A stretch of DNA of 64,000 nt from assembly GCA_965214865.1 (NCBI GenBank), contig CBDCCN010000004.1:12512-76511 (forward strand), written 5' to 3'. The DNA comes from Vicinamibacterales bacterium. GTDB lineage: Bacteria; Acidobacteriota; Vicinamibacteria; Vicinamibacterales; UBA8438. Shown here piece after piece: positions 1,018-45,778 of this stretch. Under the pieces are notes generated by a model that saw only the letters and a program-made list of their open reading frames with translations, searched no databases and was not told the DNA's origin. Every line of letters starts with the position of its first letter. Position 1 is the first letter of the stretch. Both the position numbers and the translations under genes were made by a program.

Positions 1018-1962
1018 CTAGCGGCCCGACACCGGGCCGCCGTCGCCCGAGACCTGCTTCAGGACCGTGGTGGCGGCGCCGATCATGGACGACACGTCGC
1101 TCAGGTTCGCGGGCACGATCAGGGTGTTGCCCGCCTTCGCCAGGTTGCCGAAGCGTTCCAGGTAGTCCTCGGCGATGCGGAGCTGCATGGCCTTGTCGCC
1201 GCCTTCCGCATCGAGCGCCGCGGCCACCTTCTTCAACCCCTCGGCCGTCGCCTCGGCGACCGCCAGGATCGCGGCCGCTTCACCCTCTGCCTCGTTGATC
1301 TGCTGCTGCTTGGCGCCTTCCGACTCCTTGATGACCCGCTGCTTCTCGCCTTCCGCCTGGTTGACCTTGGCGTCCCGGTCGCCTTCGGACTCGAGTACGG
1401 TCGCGCGCTTCTCCCGCTCGGCGCGCATCTGCTTTTCCATCGCCGTCAGCACGTCGCGCGGCGGGTTGATGTTCTTGATCTCGTAGCGCAGCACCTTGAC
1501 GCCCCACGGATTGGAGGCCTGGTCGAGCTCCTCGACCACCCGCAGGTTGATGTGGCTGCGCTCCTCGAACGTCTTGTCCAGTTCGATCTTGCCGATCTCG
1601 CTGCGCAGCGTGGTCTGGGCGAGCTGGGAGATCGCGAACAGGTAGTCGCCGATGCCGTAGGACGCCTTGCGCGCATCCATCACCTGGAGGTAAAGCACGC
1701 CGTCCACCCCCACCTGCACGTTGTCCGCGGTGATGCAGATCTGCTCCTCGACGTCGATCGCCCGCTCCTTCAGGCTGTGCCGGTAGGCGACCCGCTCGAG
1801 GAACGGGATCAGGATGGCGAACCCGGATTCCAGCGTTCTCGAATACTTGCCGAGACTCTCGACGATGTAGGCATTCTGCTGCGGCACGACCACCGCCGTC
1901 TTCGCGATGACGGTGATCACGACGATGGCCAGCACCAGGGCGACGATGAGACCCACGTCCAT
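1018..1962 (-). CDS. SPFH/band-7 (stomatin/prohibitin-like) membrane protein
   Basis: N-terminal TM helix (GLIVALVLAIVVITVIA), an SPFH core (VVPQQNAYIVESLGKY...RYEIKNINPP) and an E/A/K-rich coiled-coil tail. ATG at 1962 is preceded by AAGGAG. The ORF track starts 12 codons earlier, at 1998. Confidence 0.9.
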   Translation of the reverse strand: MDVGLIVALVLAIVVITVIAKTAVVVPQQNAYIVESLGKYSRTLESGFAILIPFLERVAYRHSLKERAIDVEEQICITADNVQVGVDGVLYLQVMDARKASYGIGDYLFAISQLAQTTLRSEIGKIELDKTFEERSHINLRVVEELDQASNPWGVKVLRYEIKNINPPRDVLTAMEKQMRAEREKRATVLESEGDRDAKVNQAEGEKQRVIKESEGAKQQQINEAEGEAAAILAVAEATAEGLKKVAAALDAEGGDKAMQLRIAEDYLERFGNLAKAGNTLIVPANLSDVSSMIGAATTVLKQVSGDGGPVSGR

Positions 1963-3323: not shown

Positions 3324-5299
3324 TCCCCGCCGCCGGCGCCGCCGCGCATCGCGTTCAGCGGCATCCTCACCAGCATGTAGTAGAGCAGGATGAAGACGAG
3401 CGCCCCGCCGAGAGCGCTGTCGGCGATCTCCGGCAGATCCAGCCACGGCAGCGCTTCGCCGGCACCGACCAGGAGGGCGAGCAGCACCGCCATGAGCGCC
3501 TCGCCGGCGATGAAGCCGGACGACAGGAGCACCCCGGTATTGGTGGCGCGCGTCCGTTCCTCCCCGGCCGCCTGCTGTTCGTCGAGCGAGCGCGACAGCC
3601 ACCAGCTCACGAGGCCGCCGACGAAGATCCCCGCCGTCGACGGAAACGGCAGATACATGCCGACCGCGATCAGCATGGGCGACGGCGAATTGAGGAGGAT
3701 GAGGACCCCGGCCAGCGCCATCCCGGCGATGACCAGCGGCCAGGCCATCTCCCCGCCGACGATGCCCTGCGAGATGAGCGCCATCAGCCCGGCCTGCGGC
3801 GCCGGCAGCTCCGGACTACCGATCTCGTAGACCTGGTCCATCAGGATCATCGGCCAGATGAGCACCATCGCGGCGATGGTCACGCCGACCAGCTCGCCGA
3901 TCTGCATCTTCCACGGGGTGCCGCCGAGGATGTGGCCGACCTTCAGGTCCTGCAGCATGTCGCCGGCGATGCCGCAGGCGCAGCAGACGACACCGGCCAC
4001 CGCCAGCACGCCGAGGATGCCGCTCGATCCGGTCACGCCGATGCCCACCATTACGATGGCGGCGATGAGCAGCGTGCTGAGGGTCAGGCCGCTGATCGGG
4101 TTGTTGGAGCTGCCGAGCAGGCCCACCAGGTAGCCGGCCACCGCGGCGAACAGGAAGCCCAGGATGACCATCATGACGGTCAGCAGGATGGCGCCGCCGA
4201 AACTCTCGCTGAAGTACCAGTAGAGGCCGAACAGCGGCACCGCCAGCGCCGCGATCGCCACGCCTGTTTTCCTGAAGTCGATGTCGACGTCCTGCCGCCC
4301 GGCGCCTCCTTCCTGTGACGTGTGCAGGTCGCCGAGCGCGCGCCCGATGCCCTGAATGAGCGACGTGCGCAGCTTGTATAGCGTGTAGAACGCGGCGACG
4401 ATCATCGTGCCGACGGCGAGCGGGCGGACCTGCCGCAGCCACACCTCGGTGCTCAATTCGATGAACCCGGCGGAATCGGTCGCCTGGGCGGCCAGCTCCG
4501 GGTTCAGGAAGAGGCCAAGGGGAACCAGCAGCAGCCAGCCGAGTACCGCACCGGCGAACAGCGTGGCGGCAATCTGCGGCCCGACGATGAAGCCGACCCC
4601 GATCAGCGCCGGTGACGCGGCGGGCGATTGCAACAGGAACCCGCCGACGTAGTTCACCTGCCGGCCCAGAATCTCGATCGTCGACTGCCCGAGCGAGACG
4701 AACCAAGTGGCCGAGTCGGCCACCAGCTTGACGCCGTTGCTGTTCTTGAGCAGCTCCCACGCACCGGCGACCCCCATCGCCTGGAACACGAACTTGGCGC
4801 CCGTCTGCCGCCCGCCCTGTCCCGCCTTGACCAGCTCCGCCGCGGCGACGCTCTCGGGGAACGGCAGCTCCGCCTCGACCACCAGGGTGCGGCGCAGCAC
4901 GATGATGAAGAGGACGCCGAGGATACCGCCCACCAGCATGATGGCGGTGCTCTCCCAGTAACGCAGCTCGTCCCAGACTCCGCTGATGACGAATGCGGGA
5001 ATCGTGAAGATTGCCCCGGCGACCAGCGCCTCGCCCACCGACGCGGTCGTCCGCGCCATGTTCTCCTCGAGAATCGAGCCGCCGAAGAGACGCAGCGCCG
5101 CCATCGCCACCACCGCGGCCGGGAAGGTGGCGGCCACCGTGAGGCCGGCCCGCATCCCGAGGTAGGCGTTGGCGGTGCCGAGCACGATCGCCATCGCGGT
5201 GCCGAGCAACACCGCGCGGAACGTGAGCTCGGGCAGGTCGGACGATTCGGGCACGAACGGCACGAAGGGACGGGACGACGGCTCGCTGGTCGGATTCAT
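3320..5299 (-). CDS. OPT-family oligopeptide transporter
   Basis: Polytopic membrane protein. The N-terminus (LTFRAVLLGTAMAIVLGTANAYLGMRAGLTVAATFPAAV) is typical of the OPT superfamily. ATG chosen at 5299 (MNPTSEPSS); the ORF track extends 36 codons upstream. Confidence 0.88.
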   Translation of the reverse strand: MNPTSEPSSRPFVPFVPESSDLPELTFRAVLLGTAMAIVLGTANAYLGMRAGLTVAATFPAAVVAMAALRLFGGSILEENMARTTASVGEALVAGAIFTIPAFVISGVWDELRYWESTAIMLVGGILGVLFIIVLRRTLVVEAELPFPESVAAAELVKAGQGGRQTGAKFVFQAMGVAGAWELLKNSNGVKLVADSATWFVSLGQSTIEILGRQVNYVGGFLLQSPAASPALIGVGFIVGPQIAATLFAGAVLGWLLLVPLGLFLNPELAAQATDSAGFIELSTEVWLRQVRPLAVGTMIVAAFYTLYKLRTSLIQGIGRALGDLHTSQEGGAGRQDVDIDFRKTGVAIAALAVPLFGLYWYFSESFGGAILLTVMMVILGFLFAAVAGYLVGLLGSSNNPISGLTLSTLLIAAIVMVGIGVTGSSGILGVLAVAGVVCCACGIAGDMLQDLKVGHILGGTPWKMQIGELVGVTIAAMVLIWPMILMDQVYEIGSPELPAPQAGLMALISQGIVGGEMAWPLVIAGMALAGVLILLNSPSPMLIAVGMYLPFPSTAGIFVGGLVSWWLSRSLDEQQAAGEERTRATNTGVLLSSGFIAGEALMAVLLALLVGAGEALPWLDLPEIADSALGGALVFILLYYMLVRMPLNAMRGGAGGGE

Positions 5300-5371: not shown

Positions 5372-5459
5372 GCATACGGGACACCCGCGGAGCCTCCCCA
5401 GGCCCACCCCGACTACTGCGTGCTGGTGGTGGCATCCGGGACACCTGCGGAACCTCCCG
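5372..5459. repeat. 28-nt direct repeat pair, GCAT(A/C)CGGGACACC(C/T)GCGGA(G/A)CCTCCC, period 60 nt
   Basis: Copies at 5372-5399 and 5432-5459. The second continues into GTCAATCGT..., which resembles the dispersed repeat family seen at 56654-56690. Confidence 0.65.
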
Positions 5460-5644
5460 TCAATCGTTCGCCGGATGTTTCGCCGCGGAGGTCCGCGACC
5501 GCTCTGCAGGACGGGTCGCGCACCGGCTCAAGCCAGCCGCTCACCGGTATACTTGGCCGGAGAACAGCGGCACGTTTGCGCCCGGCCGCCGGGAAGCACC
5601 AGCATGTCACCCACGAAACGACCCTCCGCCGGAAACCGGATCCC

Positions 5645-6538: not shown

Positions 6539-6755
6539 CCCGGCCGGCGGCCCGCCGATGGCGCGGGAATGCTCGGCGGCGCTTGTCGGGATGCGGCAGA
6601 TCCAGACGCCAGATATCGCCGCGATTCACTCTGGCGGCCATTCCTGCCCGCGGATCAGGTTGGCATTGTTGTGCCCGGTGCGGCCCCCCACGTTCCTCTT
6701 GCTTACCGAGAAGAACTGTGCCACACTGTTCCACGCGGTAACCGATAGGAATCCG

Positions 6756-9251
6756 ATGGCCAAGCTGTCGAACCCGGCGCAGGGGCAGTCGAAGACGACC
6801 GAGCGCGCGTGGCGACCCGGCGCGGCGCTGGAGCAGGTCTACCGGGACGTCCGCTTCGGCCTGCGGACGCTGCGCCGGGAGCCCGGCTTCACGGCGACGA
6901 CGATCCTCACCCTGACGCTCGCGATCGGCGCGACCACGACCATCTTCTCGGTCGTCGACGCGGTGCTGCTCCAGCCGCCGCCGTTTCCGGAACCCGACCG
7001 CCTGGTCACGCTGTGGCAGACCGATCCCGACAACGGCAACCGCCCCGCAGAACCGGCGCCGGCGAACTTTCTGGACTGGCGCGAGCAGGCGACGAGCTTC
7101 GAGTACGTGGCGGCGGTCGAGCCCTACTCGTTCGACTTCACCGGCGCCGGCGACCCCGAGCTGGTCTACGCGTCGCTCGTCACGGAAGGGTTCTTCGAGG
7201 CGCTCGGCGCCGGCGCCGCGTACGGCCGGACGTTTCTGCCGGACGAGTACCGCCCGGGCAGCGGCGTCGTCGTTCTGACGAACGGATTCTGGGAACGCCG
7301 CTTCGGCGGCGACACCGGCATCATCGGCCGAGCGCTGACGCTGGACGGCCAACCCCGCACCGTGGTCGGCGTGCTCGCACCGGATTTCGAGCTCGGTATC
7401 GAGCGCAATCGGGGCGAGCGCGACCTCTTCGCCCCCAAGGCGATCGCCGATTACGAGACCCGGATCCGCGGCGGCGGCTGGTGGCACGTGATCGCGCGTC
7501 TCCGGCCGGAGGTCGGCCTCTCGGCGGCGCAGGCGGAAATGGACGCCGTCGCCGGCCGGCTGGCCGTCGACCATCCCCGCACCAATACGGACGTCGGCGC
7601 GCGGGTCATCCCGCTCCGGACGCAACAGGTCGAGACGGTGCGGCCGGCGCTGTTGCTGCTGTGGGGCGGGGTGGTTCTGGTCCTGCTGATCGCCTGTGCC
7701 AACGTCGCGAACCTGATGCTGGCGCGCTGCACCCGGCGGGCGCAGGAGTTCGCCGTTCGCACGGCGGTGGGCGGCGGGCGCGGACGCCTGCTGCGCCAGT
7801 TGGTGACCGAGGGTCTGGTGATCGCGGCGCTCGGCGGCATCGGCGGCCTGCTGCTTACCGCCTCGGCGCTCGATGCGATCGTGGCGCTGATGCCCGCCGA
7901 CGTGCCGCGCGCCGGGCAGATCGACGTGAACGGACGCATCCTCGGCTTCGCCGTCGGCCTCGTCATCGTCACCGCGATGGCGTTCAGCCTCGCGCCCGCG
8001 GTGCAGATGCTCCGACAGGACGTGAACGGCCCGCTCCGCGCGCAGCGCGCCGGCGCCACCGCGGCGCAGCAGCGGCTGCGGCGCCTGCTGGTGACGGCGG
8101 AAGTCGCCCTGGCGCTGGTCCTGCTGGCCGGCGCCGGGCTGCTGGTGCAGAGCTTCGCGCGGCTCGTGAACATGAATCTCGGTTTCGCCACCCGGAACAC
8201 GGTCGCATTGCAGGTCTTCGTCTGGGACCGTCAGACCGACAACGAGGCGCGGGCGAGCTTCTTCCGGGAGACCCTGCAGAACATCCGGGCCCTGCCGGGC
8301 GTGACCGCCGCGGGAGCCGTCAGGTCGTTCCCGCTCGGGCTGGCCGACATCACGATCGAGGCGCCGTTCACGATGCACGACAGGCCGCCGCCGCCAGCCG
8401 GCGAAGAGCCGTCCGCCGCCGTCTCCCAGGCGACCCCCGGCTACTTCGAGGCGTTGCGGATCCCGCTCCGGGGCGGGCGGTGGTTCGACGAGCGGGACGA
8501 TGCCGAACGACCGGGCGTCGCCCTGATCACCGAGACGTTGGCGCGACAGCACTGGCCGGAAACCGACCCGCTCGCCCGGCGGCTGACCGTGCAGGTATCG
8601 GGACAGGCATTCGAGGCAGAGATCGTCGGGGTCGTCGGAGCAACGCGTCCGCGGGGCTTCGACAGCCGCCCGCGCCCGGAGATCTTCATTCCGCACGCCC
8701 AGGCCGCGACCGGCGACATGACCTACGTCGTGCGGACGGCCGGCGACCCGGCGGCCAGCATCGCGGCGATCCAGGACGCCGTCCGGACCGTCGATCCGCT
8801 CCAGACCTTCTACAGCGTCGCCACCGTCGACCAGCTTCTGTCGGGGACGCTCGCGGCGCGGCGGTTCACGACGACCCTCCTCGCGCTGTTCGCCCTGGCG
8901 GCCCTGACGCTCGCCGGCCTCGGCATCTACGGCGTGATCGCCGTCGCCACCGCGCAACGGACGCGCGAGATCGGCCTGCGCCTCGCCATGGGCGCGCGGC
9001 CGGGAGACGTCGTGCGCATGGTCATCCGCGGCGCGCTCGGTCTCGCCGGAGCGGGCGTGGCGTGCGGGCTCGTCGCCGCGATCTGGACGTCGCGATTCCT
9101 CACCAGCCTGCTGTTCGAGATCGCGCCGACGGACGCCGCAACGCTCGCAACGGTCTCTTCGTTGCTGCTGCTGGTGGCCGCCGGGGCCGCCTGGCGCCCG
9201 GCGCGCCGCGCCGCCGCCGTGGATCCCGTCGTCGCGCTCCGTATGGAATAG
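6756..9251 (+). CDS. ADOP-type FtsX-like permease (duplicated MacB-like permease, no ATPase partner), copy 1
   Basis: The N-terminus YRDVRFGLRTLRREPGFTATTILTLTLAIGATTTIFSVVDAVLL and a duplicated FtsX module are characteristic of the ADOP family. ATG 6756 is preceded by AGGA. It is a paralog of 9746-12466. Confidence 0.9.
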   Translation: MAKLSNPAQGQSKTTERAWRPGAALEQVYRDVRFGLRTLRREPGFTATTILTLTLAIGATTTIFSVVDAVLLQPPPFPEPDRLVTLWQTDPDNGNRPAEPAPANFLDWREQATSFEYVAAVEPYSFDFTGAGDPELVYASLVTEGFFEALGAGAAYGRTFLPDEYRPGSGVVVLTNGFWERRFGGDTGIIGRALTLDGQPRTVVGVLAPDFELGIERNRGERDLFAPKAIADYETRIRGGGWWHVIARLRPEVGLSAAQAEMDAVAGRLAVDHPRTNTDVGARVIPLRTQQVETVRPALLLLWGGVVLVLLIACANVANLMLARCTRRAQEFAVRTAVGGGRGRLLRQLVTEGLVIAALGGIGGLLLTASALDAIVALMPADVPRAGQIDVNGRILGFAVGLVIVTAMAFSLAPAVQMLRQDVNGPLRAQRAGATAAQQRLRRLLVTAEVALALVLLAGAGLLVQSFARLVNMNLGFATRNTVALQVFVWDRQTDNEARASFFRETLQNIRALPGVTAAGAVRSFPLGLADITIEAPFTMHDRPPPPAGEEPSAAVSQATPGYFEALRIPLRGGRWFDERDDAERPGVALITETLARQHWPETDPLARRLTVQVSGQAFEAEIVGVVGATRPRGFDSRPRPEIFIPHAQAATGDMTYVVRTAGDPAASIAAIQDAVRTVDPLQTFYSVATVDQLLSGTLAARRFTTTLLALFALAALTLAGLGIYGVIAVATAQRTREIGLRLAMGARPGDVVRMVIRGALGLAGAGVACGLVAAIWTSRFLTSLLFEIAPTDAATLATVSSLLLLVAAGAAWRPARRAAAVDPVVALRME

Positions 9252-9256
9252 TGTTT

Positions 9257-9283
9257 GCCTTGCTTACCGAGAGGAAGCAAGGC
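9257..9283 (+). terminator. Hairpin just after the permease-1 stop (GCCTTGCTT-N9-AAGCAAGGC)
   Basis: Perfect 9-bp stem at 9257-9265 / 9275-9283. There is no U-tract, so it is only a candidate terminator or RNA-stability element. Confidence 0.3.
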
Positions 9284-9306
9284 TACGCTCGGAACAGGAC
9301 GGCACC

Positions 9307-9393
9307 CCGGGAGTGTGCGCCGTAGAAACGGCGCACACTCCCGGGCAGGCTTGGTTGGGCGGGAATCGGAGCCGCAGGCGACGGTTTCCGGGC
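9307..9393 (+). repeat. Dispersed intergenic palindromic repeat unit (archetype copy)
   Basis: Perfect 16-bp inverted repeat CCGGGAGTGTGCGCCG-TAGAAA-CGGCGCACACTCCCGG (9307-9344), followed by the conserved tail GCAGGCTTGGTTGGGCGGGAATCGGAGCCGCAGGCGACGGTTTCCGGGC. Related copies lie at 17056, 49346, 56591 and 63933. Confidence 0.85.
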
Positions 9394-9406
9394 TTGGAGA
9401 CAACGC

Positions 9407-9742
9407 ATGAGCAAACCGTCGAACCTGGTGCAGGGCACGCTGGATCTGCTGATTCTGAAGCTCCTCGATCTCGAACCGTTGAGCGGGTGGGCCATCGGCC
9501 AGCGGCTGAAGCAGGTGTCGAGCGACGTGCTGCAGGTGAGCGACGGCTCGCTCTATCCGGCGCTGCACAAGCTCGAGCAGCAGGGCTGGGTCACCGCGGA
9601 GTGGCGCAACACCGAGAACAACCGGCGCGCGAAGATCTACGCGCTGACGCCCCCCGGACGCCGCTACCTGCGGCAGGAGACCGCGAACTGGGAGCGGCTG
9701 TCGCAAGCCATCACCCATGTCGTGCGCCTGACCGAGGCGTGA
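9407..9742 (+). CDS. PadR-family transcriptional regulator
   Basis: GTLDLLILKLLDLEPLSGWAIGQRL...SDGSLYPALHKLEQQGWVTAEW...RRAKIYALTPPGRRYL is a canonical PadR winged helix. It lies 4 nt upstream of the second ADOP permease. Confidence 0.93.
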   Translation: MSKPSNLVQGTLDLLILKLLDLEPLSGWAIGQRLKQVSSDVLQVSDGSLYPALHKLEQQGWVTAEWRNTENNRRAKIYALTPPGRRYLRQETANWERLSQAITHVVRLTEA

Positions 9743-9745
9743 GGC

Positions 9746-12466
9746 ATGTTCTTCGAACGCTGGCTGTACGCCTGGCGGGCCCGGCTGCGGACTTTGCTCG
9801 ACCGGGACGCGGTGGACCGCGAGCTGGACGACGAGCTGCAGCAACACGTCGCCCTGGAGATCGAGGCTCTCCGCGCCCGGGGCGTACCGCCGGCGGAGGC
9901 GCGCCGGCAGGCGCTGGCGGCGCTCGGCGGTCTCGTCTCGGTCCGGGAACACGTCCGCGAATCGCGATTCGGGGCTTCGCTGGAGCACGTCTGTCGGGAC
10001 GTCGGCTTCGGCCTGCGGCTGCTGCGCCGCGAGCCCGGCTTCGCGGCGACGACCATCCTCACCCTCACGCTCGCGATCGGCGCCACGACGACCATCTTCT
10101 CCGTCGTCGATGCGGTGCTCTTCCGACCGCCGCCCTTTCCGACGCCGGACCGCCTCGTCACGCTGTGGCAGACCGATCCCGAGAACGACGACCGCCCGGC
10201 CGAGCCCGCCCCCGCGAACTTTCTGGACTGGCGCGAGCGGACGACGAGCTTCAAGCACCTGGCGGCGCTCGACCCCTGGTCGTTCGACTTCAACGGGGCC
10301 GGCGATCCCGAGGTGTTCTATGCGTGGCGCGTCACGGAAGGGTTCTTCGAGGCGCTCGGCGCCGGCGCCGCGCTCGGACGCACGTTTCTGCCGGAAGAAA
10401 TCCGCGCGGGCAGCAGGGTCGTCGTCCTGACGGACGCGCTGTGGCGACGCCGCTTCGGCGGTGACGCCGCCATCGTCGGCCGGTCGCTGGCGTTGGACGG
10501 CCACCCGTACACCGTCGTCGGCGTGCTCGCCCCGCACTTCGAACTCGGCCTCGATCTCGGCCAGGGCGAGCGCGACCTCTTCGCGCCCAAGGCGAGCGCA
10601 GAATACGAGGCCTACGTTCGCGGGGAGGGCTGGTGGCACGTGATCGGACGGCTCCGCCCAGACGTCACGCTCGCGGAGGCGCAGGCGGAGATGGACGCCG
10701 TGGCCGACCGACTCGCCGCCGACCATCCCCGCACCAATACGGGCGTCGGCGCGCGCTTGATCCCGCTGCGGACACGTCAGATCGAAGCGGTGCGGCCGGT
10801 GCTGCTGCTGCTCTGGGGCGCCGTGATCTTCGTCCTGGCGATCGCCTGCGTCAACGTCGCCAACCTGATGCTGGCGCGCTGCATGCGGCGCGGGCGGGAA
10901 TTCGCCATCCGGACCGCGGTCGGCGGCGGGCGCGGGCGCCTGTTGCGCCAACTGTTGACCGAGAGCCTGGCGATCGCGGCCCTGGGAGGGATCGGGGGCG
11001 TTGCACTGACCGCTTCCGCGCTCGACACGATCGTGGCGCTCATGCCCGCCGACGTGCCGCGTCTGGCGCAGATCGCCGTGAACGGACGACTCCTCGGATT
11101 CGCCGTCGGGCTCGTCGTCCTGACCGTCGTGGCGTTCGGCTGTGCGCCCGCCGTCCGGATATTGCGACAGGACGTGAACGGCCCCCTCACCCGAGGACAC
11201 CACGCCGGCGCCGCCGAGGCGCGACAGCCGCTGCGCCGGGTGCTGTTGCCGGCGGAAGTCGCCCTGGCGCTGGTGCTCCTGGTGGGCGCGGGTCTCCTGG
11301 TGCAGAGCTTCGCGCGCCTGGTGAACGTCGAGCTGGGCTTCTCCCCGGAGAACATGGTGGCGCTTCAGGTGTTCCACTACGAAGAACGACCACCCGGTGA
11401 CGATCGACAGGACGACGACGGGCTCGACGACGAGGACGAGTTCGGCGCCACCGCGACCTTCTTTCGCGAGACGCTGCGGGGCATCCGCGCGCTGCCCGGC
11501 GTCGCCGCCGCCGGCGCGGTGTCGTCGTTCCCGCTCGGACTGGCGGACCTGACGCTCGACAGGCCGCTCACGATCCACGATCGGCCGCGGCCGGCGTTCG
11601 GCGCGGAGCCCACCACGAGCGTCTCCCTGGCGACCCCCGGCTACCTGGACACGATGCGGATCCCGCTCCGGGCCGGGCGGTGGTTCGATGCGCGCGACGA
11701 CGCCGACGGACCGGCCGTGGCGGTGATCAACGAGACGCTGGCGCAACGGCACTGGCCGGACGCCGATCCGATCGACGCGCGGGTGTCCGTGCAGCTCCAG
11801 GGGAGCATTTCCAGGGGGGCGACGACCGTGGCGGAGATCGTCGGCGTCGTCGGCGCAGTCCATCCGCGCGGCTTCGACAGCGCGCCGCGCCCGGAGATCT
11901 TCATACCGCACGCACAGGCGCCGGAAGGCTCCATGACCTACGTCGTGCGGACGGTCGGGGACCCGGCGGCCAGCCTCCCGGCGATCAAGGACGCCGTCTG
12001 GGCCGTCGACCCGCTGGAGACCTTCTACAGCGTCGCCACGGTCGACCAGCTTCTGTCCGACACGCTGGCGGCGCGGCGATTCACGACGGTGCTCCTCACG
12101 CTGTTCGGCATGGCGGCCCTGATGCTTGCCGGTCTCGGCATCTACGGGGTAATAGCGGTCGCTACGGCACAGCGGACACACGAAATCGGCCTGCGCCTCG
12201 CGCTGGGCGCGCTACCGCGCGACGTGGTGCGCATGGTCGTTCGCGACGCCGTCGGCCTGGCGGGGGCGGGCATCGTTGCCGGCCTGCTCGGCGCGCTCGT
12301 CACCTCGCAGGCCCTGGCGACCCTGCTCTACGAGGTCGCGCCGACGGACATCGCGACGCAGGGCGCGGTGTCGGCGCTGCTGTTGCTCGTGGCCGCGGCC
12401 GCCGCTTGGTTTCCTGCGCGTCGCGTCGCGAGCATCGATCCCCTAGTGGCTCTACGCACGGAGTAG
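9746..12466 (+). CDS. ADOP-type FtsX-like permease, copy 2 (with the PadR-associated N-terminal extension)
   Basis: Paralog of 6756-9251, alignable at protein and nucleotide level. It has an extra N-terminal segment (MFFERWLYAWRARLRTLLDRDAVDRELDDELQQH) and an acidic insert (HYEERPPGDDRQDDDGLDDEDEF). Confidence 0.9.
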   Translation: MFFERWLYAWRARLRTLLDRDAVDRELDDELQQHVALEIEALRARGVPPAEARRQALAALGGLVSVREHVRESRFGASLEHVCRDVGFGLRLLRREPGFAATTILTLTLAIGATTTIFSVVDAVLFRPPPFPTPDRLVTLWQTDPENDDRPAEPAPANFLDWRERTTSFKHLAALDPWSFDFNGAGDPEVFYAWRVTEGFFEALGAGAALGRTFLPEEIRAGSRVVVLTDALWRRRFGGDAAIVGRSLALDGHPYTVVGVLAPHFELGLDLGQGERDLFAPKASAEYEAYVRGEGWWHVIGRLRPDVTLAEAQAEMDAVADRLAADHPRTNTGVGARLIPLRTRQIEAVRPVLLLLWGAVIFVLAIACVNVANLMLARCMRRGREFAIRTAVGGGRGRLLRQLLTESLAIAALGGIGGVALTASALDTIVALMPADVPRLAQIAVNGRLLGFAVGLVVLTVVAFGCAPAVRILRQDVNGPLTRGHHAGAAEARQPLRRVLLPAEVALALVLLVGAGLLVQSFARLVNVELGFSPENMVALQVFHYEERPPGDDRQDDDGLDDEDEFGATATFFRETLRGIRALPGVAAAGAVSSFPLGLADLTLDRPLTIHDRPRPAFGAEPTTSVSLATPGYLDTMRIPLRAGRWFDARDDADGPAVAVINETLAQRHWPDADPIDARVSVQLQGSISRGATTVAEIVGVVGAVHPRGFDSAPRPEIFIPHAQAPEGSMTYVVRTVGDPAASLPAIKDAVWAVDPLETFYSVATVDQLLSDTLAARRFTTVLLTLFGMAALMLAGLGIYGVIAVATAQRTHEIGLRLALGALPRDVVRMVVRDAVGLAGAGIVAGLLGALVTSQALATLLYEVAPTDIATQGAVSALLLLVAAAAAWFPARRVASIDPLVALRTE

Positions 12467-13845: not shown

Positions 13846-16800
13846 TCAGAACCGGAACAGCCGGTTGAACTTCACCACGAAGCCGCGGTTGCGCAGATCC
13901 CAGCGGTCGGGCCGCAATCCGCCGGTGACGTCGCGGTCGTCCGTGTAGACCACGAACAGCTCGCTGCCGGGGCTGTACTCCCACCGCAGACGCAGGTTGC
14001 TGCCGAACGAGTTGCTGGCGGAGTTGTATTGCAGGAGTCCGCTGAAGAACATCCGCGGGTTGAACGCGTAGTTCACGCGCGTCACGGCCAGGTTGGTCTG
14101 GAACCGCCCGTACGGCGTGTCGATCCAGTTGAACGAGACGGTCGGCTCCACGGACATCTGCGGCAGCACCGCGATGCGTCCCTGGCCCAGCTCCACCGTC
14201 GTCAGGTCGCCGTCGAAATAGGCGCCCCGCTTCAGCGCCACCGTCCCGTTGACGCGCCGCTGCTGGCCGATGGAGTACGACACCTGGGCGTCGGCGAAGC
14301 TGTAGCCCCCCAACGGGATCGAGAAACCGGAGCCGGGAGGCGTGAACGGCCGCACCAGCAGCTCGTAGTTGTCGGTCATGGTGAAGGTGAGGCGGTCGCT
14401 GGACTCGAACTCGGTCTGGAACGCCAGGACGTTCTGGCGCGTCTCCAGGTGGTTCTGGTCGGCCGTCAGGATGTAGTCGACGGCTCCTTCCAGGCTGAAC
14501 TGCCGGACGCTCTCGATGGACTGCGGCCGGGGACTGAACCGGCCGGACAGGTAGGTGCGGCGGAAGTTGTCGCGCCGCAGGAAGCCCACCTCGGGCAGGA
14601 AGTTGTCCTCCACCAGGAGATGATCGACCTTCAGACCGTAGCGATCCGCCGCGTACTCGAACGCGCCCTGATAGCTCAGGTCCTTGTCGCGGTGGTCCGG
14701 ACCGGGAACCCGGGTGCGGGCGAGGTAGGTGATCAGGCTGAGATTCTCGAAGAAGGCGAAGGTGCCGTCGACGCCGTAGGCCTGGCTGGAGCCCGGGGCC
14801 ACCCGGGAGACGGACCGGTTGGTGAACATCGCGCCGACCGAGCTGCGCCGCAGGACGTCGCGCCGCAGGCGCACGACGGTGAAGTTGGTCGGGTCGGAGC
14901 GCGAGACCGTTTCGTCGCCGGCCTGGATGTTCAGGGCGCCGACGTCGAACGGCCCGATTTTCCCGGTCACACGGGCGCCGCCGACGATCGGCACGACCCG
15001 CGACGTGCCGTCGGGGGCGCGCTCGAGTCCGATCTTCCGGCTGTAGAAGAGCTGCGGCACGTTGACGTCGCCGAAGATCCCGCCCACCGGTCCGCCGCCC
15101 GGTCCGCCGAAGCGGCCCGTGACGCCGCCGCGCGCGAAGCCGAAGATGCCCCGCCCCTCGAGGAAGAACTCGCGCTTCTCGGGAAAGAACAGCGGGAAGC
15201 GGGTCAGGTTGACCTGCCGTTCGTCCACCTCCACCTGGGCGAAGTCGGTGTTGTAGGTGAAGTCCGCCGTCAGGTTCTGGGTGATGCCGTACTTGACGTC
15301 CAGGCCGGCATCTCCGCTCCTCTCGTTGTCCAGCACCGGACTCGCGGTCAGGTCGGTGCTCACCCCGCCGATGGCGTACGGCTTGACCTCGATGTTGCGG
15401 CTGGCCGGGGGCGGATCGAGACCGACCAGCGACCCGGCCGCCGAGACCCGGAAGATGCCGGCCGACCCGCTGCCGCCGCCGGCCGAGATCGGCAACCGCG
15501 TCAGGTAGACCCACTCGTTCTTGCGGCGGATCGCGCGGCGGAGCTGGAGGCCCCAGACGTGCGGCGGCTCCGAGCGGTAGCGCAGGGTCTTGAACGGGAT
15601 CTCCATCTCGACCGTCCAGCCGCCGTCGAAGCGGCCGGTCCGCACGTCCCACACCGGGTTCCAGTCGGCGTTCGGGTTGCCCTCGTTGGTGAACTGCTGG
15701 TCGGCGCGGGCGCCGAGCGGATTGGTGTAGAAGTTGAAGCCGTTGCGCCGGTCGTAGAAGGTGTCGAAGAAGGCGGTGAACGTGTCGTTCTGGCGGAGCT
15801 GACTCGTGTCGCGGCGCATCTCGTTGGCCACCCACCGGCTCTCGGGCGCCGAGTCCCAGACCCGCGCCGAGACGTAGACGTTCGTGTCGTCGAACGTGAT
15901 CCACGCCTCGGTCCGTTCGGTCGCCGGCGCGCCGATGTCGGGCACCTGCTGGATGAAGTCGGTGATCGGCGGCATCGTCTCGTAGACCGGCTCGTCGAGG
16001 ACGCCGTCCAGCCGGATGCCACGGTCGAGACGGATCGCGCGGACCGTCGTGCGCCCCTCCTCGTCGCGCGTCATCACCGCGGGCGGCACCGGCGCCGGAG
16101 GCCCGTCGATGAGGCCGGCGTCGACGATGGCGCCCGCCGATGCGACGGCGGGGAGCCCGGCGACGCCGGGCGCGGCGACGGCGGCCGCCTCGGTTGCGGG
16201 CGGGTCCGGCCGCGGCGGAACCGGCGCAGGCGCCCGAGGCGCTTCGGCGCCGGGCCGCGGGGCCGGCCCGGCGAACGGACCGCGGCGCCCGGACGCAACG
16301 TTCGGCGCGGCCCTGGCGGCCGGGGGCTCCCGACCGGCGCGGGGCGGCGCGGCCGGCGGCTCGGCCTGTCCCTGCCCCCGCCCGTCGGCGGGGGCAGGCG
16401 ACCGACCGGCGCGGGGCGGCGCGGCCGGCGGCTCGGCGAGCTCGGGCCCGCCGCGCAGTCCCAGGCCGCTGCGCAGTTCCGCTGCGACCCGATCCTGCAA
16501 CTCGAAGATGTCCGCGACCATGCCCGTCACGATCACCGACCGCAGCACGGTCCCGTCCGCCGCGTCGACGAGGCGTGCGGTCACCCGGATCCCGTCACCG
16601 AGTCGTTGATAGGCGCCGCAGACGACGCGCCCGGCGCCCGCCTGCCGGGCCGCCCCCAGCGCCCCGTTCGGGCCGGCGTACTCCCGCACCGCGGCCGTTG
16701 CACGCACGATCCGAGCGCCGCCCGCCTGCAGGTCGATCGCGACCGTCTCGGCGATGCCGGCGCCGATCCAGTCGTCCGCCGGGTCACGGCTCAGGTTGGT

Positions 16801-16935
16801 GAAAGGAACCACGAACAGGAGGTCGTCACCTCCCGGCGGAGGCGCCGTCCCGTCGGGCCGAGACTGCGCCGACGCCGGGGATGCGACCGCGAGCGCCGTG
16901 GCGAGAAGTCCTGAAACGATTCGTATCATCCGCAT
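13846..16935 (-). CDS. Secreted DUF5916 / CBM9-like domain protein with an extra N-terminal TolB-N-like domain and a Pro/Ala-rich linker
   Basis: Signal peptide (MRMIRIVSGLLATALAVASPASA). N-domain: LLFVVPFTNLSRDPADDWIGAGIAETVAIDL...GDGIRVTARLVDAADGTVL. The core is shared with 17133-19535 (FIQQVPDIGAPATERTEAWITFDD...NLTADFTYNTDFAQVEVDERQVNLTRFPLFFPEKREFF). Confidence 0.85.
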   Translation of the reverse strand: MRMIRIVSGLLATALAVASPASAQSRPDGTAPPPGGDDLLFVVPFTNLSRDPADDWIGAGIAETVAIDLQAGGARIVRATAAVREYAGPNGALGAARQAGAGRVVCGAYQRLGDGIRVTARLVDAADGTVLRSVIVTGMVADIFELQDRVAAELRSGLGLRGGPELAEPPAAPPRAGRSPAPADGRGQGQAEPPAAPPRAGREPPAARAAPNVASGRRGPFAGPAPRPGAEAPRAPAPVPPRPDPPATEAAAVAAPGVAGLPAVASAGAIVDAGLIDGPPAPVPPAVMTRDEEGRTTVRAIRLDRGIRLDGVLDEPVYETMPPITDFIQQVPDIGAPATERTEAWITFDDTNVYVSARVWDSAPESRWVANEMRRDTSQLRQNDTFTAFFDTFYDRRNGFNFYTNPLGARADQQFTNEGNPNADWNPVWDVRTGRFDGGWTVEMEIPFKTLRYRSEPPHVWGLQLRRAIRRKNEWVYLTRLPISAGGGSGSAGIFRVSAAGSLVGLDPPPASRNIEVKPYAIGGVSTDLTASPVLDNERSGDAGLDVKYGITQNLTADFTYNTDFAQVEVDERQVNLTRFPLFFPEKREFFLEGRGIFGFARGGVTGRFGGPGGGPVGGIFGDVNVPQLFYSRKIGLERAPDGTSRVVPIVGGARVTGKIGPFDVGALNIQAGDETVSRSDPTNFTVVRLRRDVLRRSSVGAMFTNRSVSRVAPGSSQAYGVDGTFAFFENLSLITYLARTRVPGPDHRDKDLSYQGAFEYAADRYGLKVDHLLVEDNFLPEVGFLRRDNFRRTYLSGRFSPRPQSIESVRQFSLEGAVDYILTADQNHLETRQNVLAFQTEFESSDRLTFTMTDNYELLVRPFTPPGSGFSIPLGGYSFADAQVSYSIGQQRRVNGTVALKRGAYFDGDLTTVELGQGRIAVLPQMSVEPTVSFNWIDTPYGRFQTNLAVTRVNYAFNPRMFFSGLLQYNSASNSFGSNLRLRWEYSPGSELFVVYTDDRDVTGGLRPDRWDLRNRGFVVKFNRLFRF
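16331..16438. repeat. In-frame 72-bp tandem duplication inside the Pro/Ala-rich linker
   Basis: CGACCGGCGCGGGGCGGCGCGGCCGGCGGCTCGGC occurs at 16331 and 16403. This corresponds to AEPPAAPPRAGR repeated 24 aa apart in the protein. Confidence 0.85.
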
Positions 16936-17055
16936 GGAATTCGCACAGAGTCCGATCAGGGTATCGGTCGCACACGGCTCGTCCGCCAGACTGGCGCCGT
17001 TTCATATGACAAGTACGTCAGACGGACCGCGTAACGGCGGCGTTTACGCGCCGCG

Positions 17056-17120
17056 CCGGGGTCTGCGCCGCAGAACGGTGCAGACCCGGTGAGGAGGGGC
17101 GGGCCGCAGGCGACGACCGA
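17056..17120 (+). repeat. Dispersed palindromic repeat unit (shorter copy)
   Basis: CCGGGGTCTGCGCCG-CAGAA-CGGTGCAGACCCGG, followed by ...GGGGCGGGCCGCAGGCGACGACCG. It sits between the two DUF5916 genes. Confidence 0.6.
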
Positions 17121-17132
17121 CGAGCCGAGCTG

Positions 17133-19535
17133 CTAGTTGCGAAACAGCCGGGTGAGCTTGATCACGAACCCCCGGTCGCGCAGCCCGTCGTAGCGCTCCG
17201 GCCGCAACGGATCGGTATCCTGCTCCTCGGTGTAGACCACGAACAGCTCGCTGCCGGGGGAGTACTCCCAGCGCAGCCGAAGATTGGTCCCCAGCGTGCG
17301 GTTCGCCGAGTTGTACTGCAGCAGGCCGCTGAAGAACATCCGCGGAGAGAAGGTGTAGTTCAGCCGCGCGCGCACGAGATCGGTGCGGAACGACCCGCCC
17401 GGCAGGTCGATCCAGTGGAACGAGACGCTCGGCTCGACCGACAGTTGCGACGACAGGTCGACGCGGCCCCGGCTCAGGTCGACGGACGTGATGTCGCCGT
17501 CGAAGTAGCCGCCCGTCGCCACCTCCACCCGTCCGTTGAGCAGCCGCTGCGGGCCGAGAGCATAGGTCAGGCGCACGTCGGTGAAGTCGTAGCCCCCGGC
17601 AGGAATGCTGACGTCCGCGCCCGACGGCGAGAACGGCTCCTGCAGCAGCTCGTAGCTGTCGCTCAGCCGCACGCCGAACTGATCGCTGTTCTCGAGCTCG
17701 GTCTGGAACGCCACCTGGTTCTGGCGCGTCTCCGGGAGCCCCGTGTCGGCCGTCAGGAAGTAGTCGTGGCTCGCCTCGAGCACGAACTGGCGGACGGCCT
17801 CGAGGGACCGGGGCCGCGGGCTGAACCGCCCGGACAGCGACGTGCGGCGGAAGTTGTCGCGCCGGAGGAACCCGACCTCCGGCCGGAAGTCGTCCTCGAC
17901 GAGCAGGTGGTCCACCTCGAGTCCGTAACGGTCGGCGCCGTAGTCGAAGCGGGCCTGGTAGCTCGTATCGCGGCCCGACACGCCGGTGGTGCGGGTCCTC
18001 GCGTAGTAGCCGAGCAGGTTGACGCTGTCGAAGAACGAGAAGGTGGCGTCGGCGCCGTAGACCCGGTTGGATCCGTCGCCCGACAGCGAAAGCGACCGGT
18101 TGGTGGCGATGGCGCCGACGCTGCTGCGCCGCAGGAGGTCCCGCTTGACGCGCAGCACCGTGAAGTTCGTATCGCGAGCGCGCGAGACCGCTTCGTCGCC
18201 GGTCTGGATGTTCAGCGCCCCGACGTCGAACGCGCCGATCTTCCCGGTCAGGCGTCCGCCGCCGAGGATCGGCACCGCCTGCCCGCCCTGCAGCCCGATG
18301 CGGCGGCTGTAGAAGATGGTCGGCGCGTCGCCGCCGCCGAGCACGCTGCCCCGCCGCAGGCTCCGCGCGGTGCGGAAGCTGCCGCGGGCGAAGTCGAAGA
18401 TGCCGCGCCCTTCGAGAAAGAACTCCCGCTTTTCGGGAAAGAAGAGGTTGAAACGGGTCAGGTTGACCTGCTGCTCGTCCACCTCGACCTGTGCGAAATC
18501 GGTGTTGTACGTGAAGTCGGCGGTCAGGTTCTGCGTGATCCCGTACTTCAGGTCCACGCCCAGCTTGCCGTCGCGTTCGAGCGGCATCCCCGCCCCGGCC
18601 GGTCCGGCGGATTCCGGGGCGGCGGTGGTCAGGCCGCCGATGGCGTACGGCTTGAGCTCCAGGTGGCCGCCGGCGGGCGGCGCCTCGAGCCCGACCAGCG
18701 TGCCGGCGGCGGACACGCGAAAGACGCCGCCGCGTCCGCCGAACCCCGCGGCGGAGATCGGGATCAGGGTCAGGTAGGCCCATTCGTTCTTGCGCATCAC
18801 GGTGCGCCGAAGCTGAATGCCCCAGACCTGGTCGCGCGCCGGCCGGTAACGGAGCGACTTGAACGGCACGACCATCTCGATGGTCCAGCCCCCGTCGAAC
18901 CGATCCGTCCTGACGTCCCACACCGGGTTCCAGTCGCGATTCGGGTTGCCCTCGTTGGTGAGCGCCTGGTCGACGAAGCCGCCGAGCGGATTCGCATAGA
19001 AAAGCAAGGCGTTGCGGCGGTCGTAGAACGTGTCGATCAGGAACCCGAACAGGTCGTTGTTCAACATGTTGAACGCGTCGCGGCGCATCTCGGTCGCCAC
19101 CCACTCGGTGGGCGGGGCGCTGTCCCAGCAGCGCCCCGCGACGTAGAAGTTCTCGTCGTCGAACATCACCCAGGCGTCGGTCCGCTCGGTGGCCGGCGCT
19201 CCTTCGTCGGGAAGCTGCTGGATGAAGTCGGAGACGGGCGCGACGGCGTCGTAGACCGGCTCGTCGAGCCGGCCGTCGACCTCGATGCCGGCGAGGAGGC
19301 GAATGGCGCGCATGGTCGCCTGCCCCCCGTCCCGCGTGATGACGTCGGGCGCCACGGGCGCAGGCGGCCCGTCGATGACGACGTCGGTCTCGAACCGGGT
19401 CCCGTCGGGAACCGGCGCCGGCGTGCCGGCCGGGACCTGCATCCGCCCGGACGGCGCCTCGACGGCCCGGGCCGTTGCGGAGACGGCGCACGACACGCAG
19501 AACGCCGGCAGGACGCCGACCGCGATCGCCTTCAT
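17133..19535 (-). CDS. Secreted DUF5916 / CBM9-like domain protein (paralog without the N-terminal extension)
   Basis: Signal peptide MKAIAVGVLPAFCVSCAVSATARA from ATG 19535. Collinear homology to 13846-16935 (FIQQLPDEGAPATERTDAWVMFDD...NLTADFTYNTDFAQVEVDEQQVNLTRFNLFFPEKREFF). Confidence 0.85.
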   Translation of the reverse strand: MKAIAVGVLPAFCVSCAVSATARAVEAPSGRMQVPAGTPAPVPDGTRFETDVVIDGPPAPVAPDVITRDGGQATMRAIRLLAGIEVDGRLDEPVYDAVAPVSDFIQQLPDEGAPATERTDAWVMFDDENFYVAGRCWDSAPPTEWVATEMRRDAFNMLNNDLFGFLIDTFYDRRNALLFYANPLGGFVDQALTNEGNPNRDWNPVWDVRTDRFDGGWTIEMVVPFKSLRYRPARDQVWGIQLRRTVMRKNEWAYLTLIPISAAGFGGRGGVFRVSAAGTLVGLEAPPAGGHLELKPYAIGGLTTAAPESAGPAGAGMPLERDGKLGVDLKYGITQNLTADFTYNTDFAQVEVDEQQVNLTRFNLFFPEKREFFLEGRGIFDFARGSFRTARSLRRGSVLGGGDAPTIFYSRRIGLQGGQAVPILGGGRLTGKIGAFDVGALNIQTGDEAVSRARDTNFTVLRVKRDLLRRSSVGAIATNRSLSLSGDGSNRVYGADATFSFFDSVNLLGYYARTRTTGVSGRDTSYQARFDYGADRYGLEVDHLLVEDDFRPEVGFLRRDNFRRTSLSGRFSPRPRSLEAVRQFVLEASHDYFLTADTGLPETRQNQVAFQTELENSDQFGVRLSDSYELLQEPFSPSGADVSIPAGGYDFTDVRLTYALGPQRLLNGRVEVATGGYFDGDITSVDLSRGRVDLSSQLSVEPSVSFHWIDLPGGSFRTDLVRARLNYTFSPRMFFSGLLQYNSANRTLGTNLRLRWEYSPGSELFVVYTEEQDTDPLRPERYDGLRDRGFVIKLTRLFRN

Positions 19536-22304: not shown

Positions 22305-22381
22305 GGTGAGTGTAGCTCAGTCGGTAGAGCGCCGGACTGTGGCTCCGGATGTCGCGGGTTCGAGTCCCGTCACTCACCCCA
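22305..22381 (+). tRNA. tRNA-His (anticodon GTG)
   Basis: Folded by hand: extra G-1, acceptor GTGAGTG/CACTCAC, anticodon arm CCGGA-CTGTGGC-TCCGG, T-arm GCGGG-TTCGAGT-CCCGT, encoded CCA. Confidence 0.95.
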
Positions 22382-43531: not shown

Positions 43532-43608
43532 GCGCCCGTAGCTCAGCTGGATAGAGCGCCGGGCTTCGAACCCGTAGGTCGGGGGTTCAAATCCCTCCGG
43601 GCGCGCCA
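43532..43608 (+). tRNA. tRNA-Arg (anticodon TCG)
   Basis: Folded by hand: acceptor GCGCCCG/CGGGCGC, D-arm GCTC-AGCTGGATA-GAGC, anticodon loop CTTCGAA, T-arm GGGGG-TTCAAAT-CCCTC, encoded CCA. TGGTAAGAT (extended -10-like) lies just upstream of the start (ends ~10 nt before it). Confidence 0.9.
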
Positions 43609-43664: not shown

Positions 43665-43741
<77 letters not shown>

Positions 43742-44086: not shown

Positions 44087-44116
44087 TCACTTCACTCCTC
44101 CGCCGCCGTTCTATTT

Positions 44117-45090: not shown

Positions 45091-45099
45091 GGTTTCCCC

Positions 45100-45567: not shown

Positions 45568-45772
45568 CGAGTCCCTCCCTCGGAACGGATCGGGCCGGCG
45601 TTTTCTTCTTCTGACTCTACCGGAAAGCGGCTTTCCTGGCGACAGTTTTCGCGAACGGGAAACCTCGGGTTCGTCCCTCCCCCGGGGCTCGGGTTGCGTC
45701 CCCGCGAATCCGTGGAACCGGCGCGCATCGCCGGGGAGCGCCGGGAGCGATCCGCTCCGGGCCGCCGTGAGC

Positions 45773-45778
45773 TATAAT
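45773..45778 (+). promoter_or_regulatory. Candidate -10 box (TATAAT) for tRNA-Lys
   Basis: Perfect TATAAT 20 nt upstream of the mature tRNA 5' end. Confidence 0.35.

Follow-up and report, generated by a model that had tools for sequence, protein, structure and literature searches.

A 64,000-nt stretch of a Vicinamibacterales genome (contig CBDCCN010000004.1, positions 12,512 to 76,511; hereafter the window) carries several copies of a dispersed intergenic hairpin repeat. The repeat family is real and has probably not been described so far. Its unit of about 85 nt is formed by a hairpin with a 16-bp stem (H1) and by a second module (M2), which comprises a G-rich spacer and a hairpin with a stem of 8–9 bp (H2). 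The unit is copied whole and keeps a fixed internal orientation, is inserted directly beside TAG stop codons or CTAG sites at the 3′ ends of genes in either orientation, and is stacked head-to-tail, also with other modules that carry the same leader. We propose that it represents a lineage-specific family of non-coding, non-autonomous mobile mosaic hairpin repeats of Vicinamibacterales, similar to repetitive extragenic palindromes (REP), bacterial interspersed mosaic elements (BIME) and miniature transposable elements with inverted repeats (MITE) and perhaps mobilised by an HUH-type enzyme; to this reading, taken in full, we give about an even chance. That the repeat is a structure-dependent, non-autonomous mobile mosaic element which targets TAG/CTAG at gene ends can be held with fair confidence; the assignment of its mobiliser to the HUH enzymes is weakly held.

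The archetypal copy opens with a perfect 16+16-nt palindrome, CCGGGAGTGTGCGCCG-TAGAAA-CGGCGCACACTCCCGG, with a loop of 6 nt. This palindrome, noticed in the initial annotation, occurs once in the window and had no match in 100 dinucleotide shuffles, and two hairpins form in the 111-nt archetype region, with a folding energy of −65.6 kcal/mol (z = −6.4 relative to shuffles). H1, of 38 nt, is followed by GGCAGGGTTGGTTGGG. The segment described earlier as the tail of the unit is itself a second conserved hairpin module, a point absent from that description: in M2 the spacer GGGTTGGTTGGGCGG is followed by H2, whose conserved 13-nt loop GAGCCGCAGGCGA can form GCC/GGC pairs of its own, and the module ends in CCGGGC-TAG. 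The consensus is C(T/C)AGGAGTCTGCGCCG-TAGAA-CGGCGCAGACTCCT(A/G)G - (C)AGGGTTGGTTGGGCGG - CAATCG-GAGCCGCAGGCGA-CGATTTCC-GGGC - (T/C)AG. The ends of the unit differ (GGAGTCTGCGCC... and ...CGATTTCCGGGC) and form no terminal inverted repeats (TIRs), and the spacing between units, 82–87 nt, preserves no reading frame. To judge from its bases, the spacer (GGTTGGGCGG at 9352–9362 of the window) has four G-runs whose spacing may resemble that of a two-tetrad G-quadruplex, for which the thrombin aptamer GGTTGGTGTGGTTGG serves as comparison.

Both stems are maintained by compensatory change. In the 129 copies from which the covariance model of the family (R1) was built, 90.1% of the cells in 28 proposed pairs hold standard pairs, against 29–43% when the 3′ partners are slid by 1–3 columns. 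Changes on both sides were found in 19 of the 28 pairs, 14 of 16 in H1 and 5 of 12 in H2 (for example, CAATCG/CGATTT against TGAGCG/CGCTCT). The covariation score was 0.203, against 0.136 ± 0.004 for shuffled alignments, none of which reached it in 500 trials, and 0.03–0.06 for slid ones; the co-variation of hairpin arms first noticed within the window thus extends to 129 distinct copies, far beyond both controls. Among the non-Watson-Crick cells, G·T pairs (248) outnumber A·C (84), and the former prevail in 17 columns and the latter in 6, which indicates that the stems matter on the strand shown and not on its complement. Copies that are antisense to their neighbours keep this excess (42 against 20), so that mRNA alone is insufficient as an explanation. 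At the foot of H1 the same copies have CCAG (39), CTAG (21), CCGG (19) or GCAG (14), and GTAG in only 6; GT(A/G)G is located in the H1 loop, not at the foot.

A search of one genome per species for an exact pattern, in which 21 bases from the M2 tail were specified, selected at least 117 genome blocks and, among the matches listed, 115 of 117 contain the full element. These 115 blocks come from about 40 species-level metagenome-assembled genomes (MAGs), separately assembled and including several closed chromosomes, so that the dispersed REP/MITE-like family suspected from the window alone has further copies in about 40 related genomes. All bar two are named Vicinamibacterales, Vicinamibacteria, Vicinamibacteraceae or Acidobacteria. 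The two exceptions, L063 (CAXXKS010000001.1, labelled Alphaproteobacteria) and L087 (CBDCDL010000002.1, labelled Spirochaetia), carry genuine copies of 95.5 and 63.4 bits; since their G+C content of 68–70% is also that of the family's hosts (70% in the window), either these contigs are mis-binned or mislabelled or the element was transferred outside Acidobacteriota. The remaining two pattern matches, in Halorientalis and Mycobacterium, lack the rest of the element and are chance matches.

Across the window and 120 fetched loci (L numbers), iterated profile searches delimited 177 units in 154 arrays, of which 134 are single, 17 double and 3 triple. R1 gave 146 matches at E ≤ 1e-3 in 100 loci, with E down to 1e-17; some of the weaker ones, a minority, reflect the H1 palindrome read on the opposite strand. 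Beyond the copy that recruited each block, copies occur at about one per 15 kb, which fits several hundred per genome of 6–8 Mb. The earlier expectation of hundreds of copies per genome is therefore probably correct, as an estimate from this density and from the at least 117 blocks, 15 of them from a single 6.1-Mb chromosome, rather than as a direct count. Rfam returned only four tRNAs at gathering thresholds on the window, and at E ≤ 1 no match on the repeats of three loci with 2–4 copies each. Collections of plasmids, phages and viral contigs gave no match, and no paper describing the repeat family was found in the literature. The initial annotation had staked its claim on further copies and on the lack of a known repeat or non-coding RNA family; further copies exist, and no described RNA family matches them.

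The copies are intergenic, as was first noted: all of them in the window, by a gene map drawn from third-position GC that agrees with the called genes of the matching public contig, and essentially all across the fetched loci. Between co-directional genes, 52 arrays are sense and 21 antisense (binomial p ~3e-4); among arrays with genes called on both sides, 25 lie between convergent and 24 between divergent pairs. From a facing stop codon the median distance is 8 nt for the 5′ end of the unit and 20 nt for the 3′ end; for facing start codons the medians are 129–143 nt. Of 87 cases, 25 have the TAG of cTAGgag as the stop of the upstream gene and 11 more have that of the loop GTAG, and the stop of the opposite-strand gene is the CTA right after ...CCGGG (GGG-CTA) in 16 of 46. 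TAG makes up 72% of adjacent stops (76% on the 5′ side, 65% on the 3′ side), against 38% of all called stops. CTAG is depleted about 10-fold across the loci (259 observed against 2678 expected), and element junctions, with 1.8% of the DNA, nevertheless hold 29% of all CTAG sites. The elements are usually flanked by C(T/C)A...TAG, a pattern that a decayed duplication of TA could leave.

In the window itself CTAG is found at 1018, 12443, 17133, 43622, 45805, 49471 and 57954. Element junctions and the H1 foot are mostly CCAGG/CCTGG (CCWGG), not CTAGG, a bias that would fit a CTWGG to CCWGG conversion of the Dcm/Vsr very-short-patch type in this lineage.

Comparisons between orthologous loci give evidence for movement. 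The site CGT-CTACAG, empty in L059, is filled in L114 as CGT-[CCAGGAG...H1...M2...CCTGG]-CTACAG. The CTA is in both the stop of a minus-strand gene, and the insert adjoins this pre-existing TAG; it is the entire H1-M2 in one piece, whose far end lacks an inverted repeat and whose flanks, CCA to the left and CTA to the right, form no clean duplication. L005 and L070, 93% identical, differ at the same CTGCTAG stop by one unit against two units in opposite orientation. The orthologous arrays of L055 and L064, whose flanks are 94% identical, have H1 stems that differ by several paired changes, which suggests replacement or conversion rather than point mutation, and their more distant relatives L050 and L091 have the same TAG stop and no element. 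Likewise, a gene of L045 ends in TAG with an array; its orthologue in the window has a TGA stop and lacks the element. In 128 of the 129 copies the asymmetric loop of H1 is oriented identically with respect to M2, and 20 arrays are head-to-tail, with one adjacent pair inverted; H1-M2 was therefore propagated as an oriented unit. On account of the loop orientation, an independent insertion of H1 beside M2 was rejected. A circularly permuted unit (right arm-M2-left arm, with inverted repeats facing outward) was also rejected, given that a left arm lies 3′ in only about one quarter of the copies and none does so at L114.

The leader GGAG(T/C)(C/T)TGCGCCGTAGAA is common to H1-M2 and at least three other small hairpin elements, and the left arm with its loop, GGAG(T/C)(C/T)TGCGCCGT(A/G)GAA, heads other elements too. 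Type B is a MITE of 108–113 nt with perfect TIRs of 19–20 bp, which correspond to the H1 arms plus GTAG. Its interior is AT-richer (GTTTTGGGTCCGATCTGGCACA...), its flanks are cTA...TAg, as seen in L040, L083 and L122, and the terminal CTAG of M2 is often its insertion site, in either orientation. Type B recurs in soil metagenome contigs, where three short MITE copies matched its end. Solo H1 hairpins exist and are equivalent to two type B repeats back to back. Type C is a unit of two hairpins, leader + GTTTCGCGCCAGCGAAACTTC + CAACGCGACCGCAAGGTCGCGC + TAG; in detail, CCAGGAGCTTGCGCCGTAGAA is followed by the hairpin GAAGTTTCGC-GCCA-GCGAAACTTC, the hairpin GCGACC-GCAA-GGTCGC and TAG. It forms mixed head-to-tail arrays with H1-M2, in the order A-C-C. 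Other hairpins, of 50–55 nt, have the same stem and larger loops. Most of the 'half H1' sequences that follow arrays are the left ends of neighbouring leader-sharing elements. The shared leader, the H1 arms as TIRs of a separate 113-nt MITE and the exact contact of the unit with TAG/CTAG at gene ends are all points absent from the initial annotation.

As a mechanism, we suggest that the elements spread through the folding of one particular single strand, as would be expected from the tolerance of G·T and not of A·C, also in antisense copies. The folded strand would be recognised by an enzyme that depends on hairpins and whose gene lies elsewhere in the genome; for this enzyme an HUH/Y1 transposase similar to the REP-associated tyrosine transposases (RAYT) or to TIRYT would be the likeliest candidate, and the terminal CTAG of a resident unit would become the next target. 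An HUH-type mechanism is favoured by the asymmetric unit without TIR or clear duplication, by the strand-specific folding, by the short target repeated at the 3′ end and by the oriented arrays. Acidobacteria encode RAYT-like 'TIRYT' Y1 transposases, and in other phyla the GTAG-type REPs have termini that supply TAG stops, G·T pairing, and co-directional or convergent locations (Di Nocera and co-workers, PMC3733652). By analogy, GC-rich hairpins left in 3′ untranslated or intercistronic RNA would probably act as 3′-end or stability barriers.

Several points weigh against this proposal. Motif expressions and phmmer searches with 14 RAYT/TIRYT queries (supplement 5 of PMC3733652), run on all six-frame open reading frames of the window and the loci, found no Y1, RAYT or TIRYT gene, either in the window or in the surroundings of ~150 arrays (about 1 Mb); the RAYT/IS200-like partner that the initial annotation had advised looking for was thus sought there and not found. 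The genes between oppositely oriented copies (the 'REPtron' test) are all housekeeping genes. Along a 6.1-Mb chromosome (OY282382.1) orientation shows no replichore switch of the kind that lagging-strand-coupled Y1 transposition would predict, and it is only weakly linked to local GC skew (87 against 67). H1 and H2 are dissimilar in stem length and sequence, unlike the end hairpins of IS200/IS605, and the perfect TIRs and TA/CTAG flanks of type B fit a DDE enzyme of IS630/IS5 kind at least equally well. The near-invariance of GGGCGG, CG.AGCCGC and AGG.GACG, as well as the conservation of the M2 loop, is partly built in by the search, since the fetch pattern fixed 21 bases of M2, and much of the G·T excess is due to two subfamily-defining substitutions. 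A single clean pair of empty and filled sites was obtained, a small base for the evidence of movement, and the role in RNA is drawn from analogy.

Other candidates for a mobilising enzyme were set aside. A weak phmmer match of an E. coli RAYT query beside a copy in L006 is malate synthase. A profile of acidobacterial TIRYT gave more than 8000 matches in a protein database, of which the best 120 all have the low-GC composition of lower-GC acidobacterial proteins, so that no Vicinamibacterales candidate could be picked. Pairs of left and right arms 1.2–1.4 kb apart, considered as insertion sequences (IS), enclose L28, HtpX and a peptidase gene, and no IS with H1-arm ends was found between such pairs 0.5–3 kb apart or in the three metagenome matches of type B. 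A 0.8-kb segment that starts at a unit and is 97% identical between L016 and L065 is a conserved cytochrome c gene, not a unit-carrying element. Beside this gene, L016 has a transposase-like fragment (1119–1880, minus strand), apparently frameshifted and unrelated to the repeat ends, which interrupts the synteny with L065; its motif ...RYPQFRAKGLCISSGVVEAGCKQIGDRLKRAGMRW... may be of ISKra4 type.

A possible, if doubtful, alternative is a MITE moved by DDE cut-and-paste transposition (IS630/Tc1 or IS5 type). The H1 arms would be its TIRs, the TA within CTAG its target, with duplication of TA, and M2 a passenger or neighbour that travels with H1, or else a preferred target of H1; the parent IS would be bounded by GGAGTCTGCGCCGTAGAAC. 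IS630 inserts at CTAG and duplicates TA, and the IS5 group duplicates YTAR. Type B agrees with this in its TIRs, in its flanks and in its insertion in either orientation at the CTAG ending M2, as do the solo H1, with both repeats back to back, and the strong association of the elements with CTAG. H1-M2, however, has no right-hand inverted repeat, and the M2 end GCCCGGAAATCGTCGCC is unrelated to the H1 arm. At the L059/L114 site H1 and M2 came together and without clean duplication, and left and right junction tetranucleotides are uncorrelated. The ratios of 128:1 for loop orientation and 20:1 for direct arrays are unexpected for a DDE enzyme at a palindromic target, and an excess of G·T over A·C is not expected of double-stranded inverted repeats. 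No matching IS was found in the searched loci and metagenome matches.

It seems rather improbable that the leader-sharing units are substrates of a new hairpin-recognising recombinase or nuclease that homes to TAG/CTAG, distinct from the RAYT/REP, IS200/IS605 and DDE-MITE systems. Under such 'stop-codon-homing', asymmetric units may be copied head-to-tail without TIRs or target duplication, and the M2 loop with the G-rich spacer (GGTTGGTTGGGCGG, by its bases a possible two-tetrad quadruplex) may be the site of recognition or priming. If the mobilising enzyme were new, it would represent a sequence- and structure-guided DNA insertion activity.

We consider it unlikely that the repeat is primarily a host cis-acting RNA element (a stabiliser in 3′ untranslated or intercistronic regions, a terminator or an insulator) or a multicopy small RNA, with its spread as a secondary event. 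Such a role would agree with the 52:21 bias toward the sense strand of co-directional genes and with 5′ ends a few nucleotides from stop codons; in sense copies a highly stable hairpin comes to lie a few bases from the stop. It would also agree with the tolerance of G·U, whose ratio is 4.0 in sense and 2.1 in antisense copies, and with the AGGAG left at junctions, which can serve the next gene as a ribosome-binding site (e.g., L096 and L079). Canonical terminators are not above chance (6 hairpins with T-tracts at 44001–64000 of the window, against 6.3 in shuffles), and the organism seems not to rely on them. REP/BIME elements are known for such roles (PMC3733652). On the other hand, about 29% of the co-directional copies are antisense, 49 arrays lie between convergent or divergent genes, and antisense copies keep the G·T excess. 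Neither hairpin is followed by a U-tract, unlike in an intrinsic terminator, and after H1 comes GGCAGGGTTGGTTGGG; no terminator-like or promoter-like site was found at the copies (c1 and c4 of the table were those checked for terminators), and Rfam gave no match. A mobile origin is indicated by insertion polymorphism, by the two orientations present at a single site and by the modular leader. Finally, chance, low-complexity GC-rich sequence or an assembly artefact is refuted: a G+C content of 70% yields many weak matches, and many R1 matches have E of 1–10, but E falls to 1e-21 in the window and to 1e-17 across loci, independent assemblies have c1 in identical form, the carriers are about 40 separately assembled genomes with several closed chromosomes, and the two chance matches to the pattern were recognisably different, without the rest of the element.

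The family fits none of the REP, BIME, MITE and IS200/IS605 classes fully, since it departs from each in defining traits. It shares with REPs the short, GC-rich, extragenic palindromes in high copy number (the 38 nt of H1 agree with the usual description of an imperfect palindrome of 20–40 nt), the subfamilies particular to a lineage, in which stems vary in a compensatory way and G·T pairs are frequent, the preference for gene 3′ ends between co-directional or convergent genes, and termini that supply TAG stops. As in REP/BIME systems, it is a mosaic of few motifs, and the whole unit has neither TIRs nor a clear target duplication. It differs from REPs in the foot, C(T/C)AG here and not GTAG/CGTC, with GT(A/G)G in the loop; in the stem, of 16 bp against the usual 6–9 bp; in the second conserved and non-palindromic module, M2; and in that neither the window nor about 1 Mb of loci yielded a RAYT. 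Its units are arranged head-to-tail (20 arrays against one inverted pair), and not in alternation as in BIMEs and REPINs. MITEs derived from IS630/Tc1 or IS5, for example Correia and Nezha, are likewise of 40–115 nt, intergenic and with hairpin potential, and the H1 arms, genuine 19–20-bp TIRs in type B and in solo H1, and the TA/CTAG at both flanks are MITE-like; the abundant H1-M2, in contrast, is asymmetric, lacks a right-hand inverted repeat and a clear target duplication, and has a fixed internal orientation and direct arrays, with no parent IS found in the loci searched.

Palindrome-associated transposable elements (PATEs), derived from IS200/IS605, resemble the family in subterminal hairpins at both ends, in the lack of TIRs and of a clear duplication, in insertion beside a specific short sequence and in strand-specific folding. 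They differ in that the two hairpins here are dissimilar, the palindromic target receives insertions of either orientation at one and the same site, a replichore bias is lacking, and no TnpA or TnpB is nearby. Mycobacterial interspersed repetitive units (MIRUs) are not hairpin-based and have small reading frames coupled to the flanking genes. The apparent likeness to them lies in the high-GC host, in head-to-tail units of 40–100 nt within operons, in the orientation bias relative to flanking genes and in the overlap with upstream stop codons; the units of 82–87 nt here, in contrast, keep no frame, and 21 of the 73 co-directional copies are antisense.

Vicinamibacterales are among the most abundant soil bacteria and are known almost solely from MAGs. 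A repeat present at probably hundreds of copies per genome affects their assembly and binning (compare the labels Alphaproteobacteria and Spirochaetia above), is a lineage marker and a possible typing target, and marks gene 3′ ends in this phylum. The family joins features usually split between REP/BIME and MITEs, with a shared leader, interchangeable modules and an exact abutment to TAG/CTAG, and offers a tractable case for the choice of targets and for whether one enzyme mobilises several types of module.

In the window, profile and covariance-model searches recovered five loci (E from 1e-21 to 5e-5), with seven units or part-units in all, R1 being run with its filters off. A profile search with nhmmer from the archetype as single seed recovered 56758–56677 (−), 49390–49470 (+) and 64000–63935 (−) with E from 1e-10 to 2e-5. 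The further copies placed in the initial annotation at 17056, 49346, 56591 and 63933 are all supported by R1, with 8.6 to 80.3 bits when part-units are included. The count of one and a half units at 49346–49471 stands as a part-unit followed by a complete one, and that of two units at 56591–56756 as a complete unit and a degenerate one. The degenerate relatives suspected at 5432–5480 and 57812–57870 gave no match to R1 even at E ≤ 10; the latter, just 3′ of a TGA stop, could be a decayed copy, recognisable by eye and not demonstrable. A further R1 match at 61709–61809 (21 bits, E 0.026), in a convergent intergenic region, is an unrelated inverted repeat, CGGAACGCTACGCGCG...CGTAGCGCCG, and not a member of the family.

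Copies of the H1-M2 unit in the window and positions of related elements in the fetched loci
Feature	Position	Strand	Remarks
c1, complete unit, archetype	9307–9393	+	R1 97.5 bits over 9305–9398
c1, H1 hairpin	9307–9344	+	arms 9307–9322 and 9329–9344, loop TAGAAA
c1, G-rich spacer	9345–9359	+	
c1, H2 hairpin	9360–9390	+	arms 9360–9368 and 9382–9390, loop GAGCCGCAGGCGA at 9369–9381
c2, unit with internal deletion	17053–17123	+	R1 35.9 bits, E 4.5e-5
c3a, part-unit	49346–49385	+	R1 8.6 bits, partial; M2 profile match 49364–49385
c3b, complete unit	49386–49471	+	R1 68.1 bits over 49383–49476
c4a, complete unit	56669–56761	−	R1 80.3 bits
c4b, degenerate second unit	56591–56668	−	nhmmer E 3e-5; R1 19 bits, E 0.064 over 56596–56660
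c5, unit truncated by the window end inside the H1 loop	63933–64000	−	R1 41.5 bits over 63928–63997
Type B	L040:7198–7308 and 7434–7541		
Type B	L107:3940–4049		
Type B	L083:98–208		
Type B	L122, around 3500–3642	−	
Type B	L123:455–570		
Type C	L119:2451–2590		
Type C	L074:6080–6200		
Type C	L041:6809–6900 and 4100–4190		
Type C	L044		
Type C	L081:430–560		
Type C	L103	−	after the unit at 620–710

Copy c1 lies between the stop (9251) of a MacB/FtsX-type permease gene and the ATG (9407) of a PadR gene, sense to both; it is 100% identical in three other assemblies (L001–L003), and the sequence of the PadR gene is identical in one MAG assembly and two metagenome contigs. In c2, H1 is intact (17056–17089, stem GGGTCTGC/GCAGACCC), and the spacer and the 5′ arm of the second hairpin are deleted, which leaves GGGGCGGGCCGCAGGCGACGACCGACG of M2. 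This copy is flanked by two paralogous minus-strand genes and is antisense to both, with its 3′ end 12 nt from the stop codon of the gene at 17133, where a CTAG lies. In c3a the left arm of H1 is fused directly to the 3′ part of M2 (CCGCAGGCGACGATTTTCGGGC) by an internal deletion at a GCCG microhomology. It is arranged head-to-tail with c3b, which terminates in GGGCTAG (CTAG at 49471) and is located between two divergent genes, one on the minus strand (start at about 49174–49189) and one on the plus strand. Copy c4a is the first of the head-to-tail pair c4a–c4b and is antisense to two flanking plus-strand genes; c4b lacks the left arm of H1 and has an expanded M2, and its 3′ end overlaps the TGA stop (56597–56599) of the plus-strand gene 55193–56599. 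The end of copy c5 lies 20 nt upstream of the start codon (ATG, 63913) of a minus-strand gene, to which the copy is sense. The exact protein sequences of the genes beside c2, c4 and c5 gave no database entry, probably owing to differences in the called starts.

The window also contains tandem pairs or triplets of paralogous genes, at 6666–12466, 13846–19535, 47219–52453 and 44117–45567, and c1, c2 and c3 are located at junctions of such duplicated genes. These include two MacB/FtsX-type permease genes that are 78% identical, with the PadR gene in between; two large minus-strand paralogues with about 75% identity; two minus-strand genes, at 47.2–49.2 and 50.6–52.5 kb, with about 80% identity; and three small minus-strand paralogues of about 150 amino acids each. 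The four tRNA genes of the window are located at 22306–22378, 43532–43605, 43665–43738 and 45799–45871, and the two neighbours at 43.5–43.7 kb are 82% identical.

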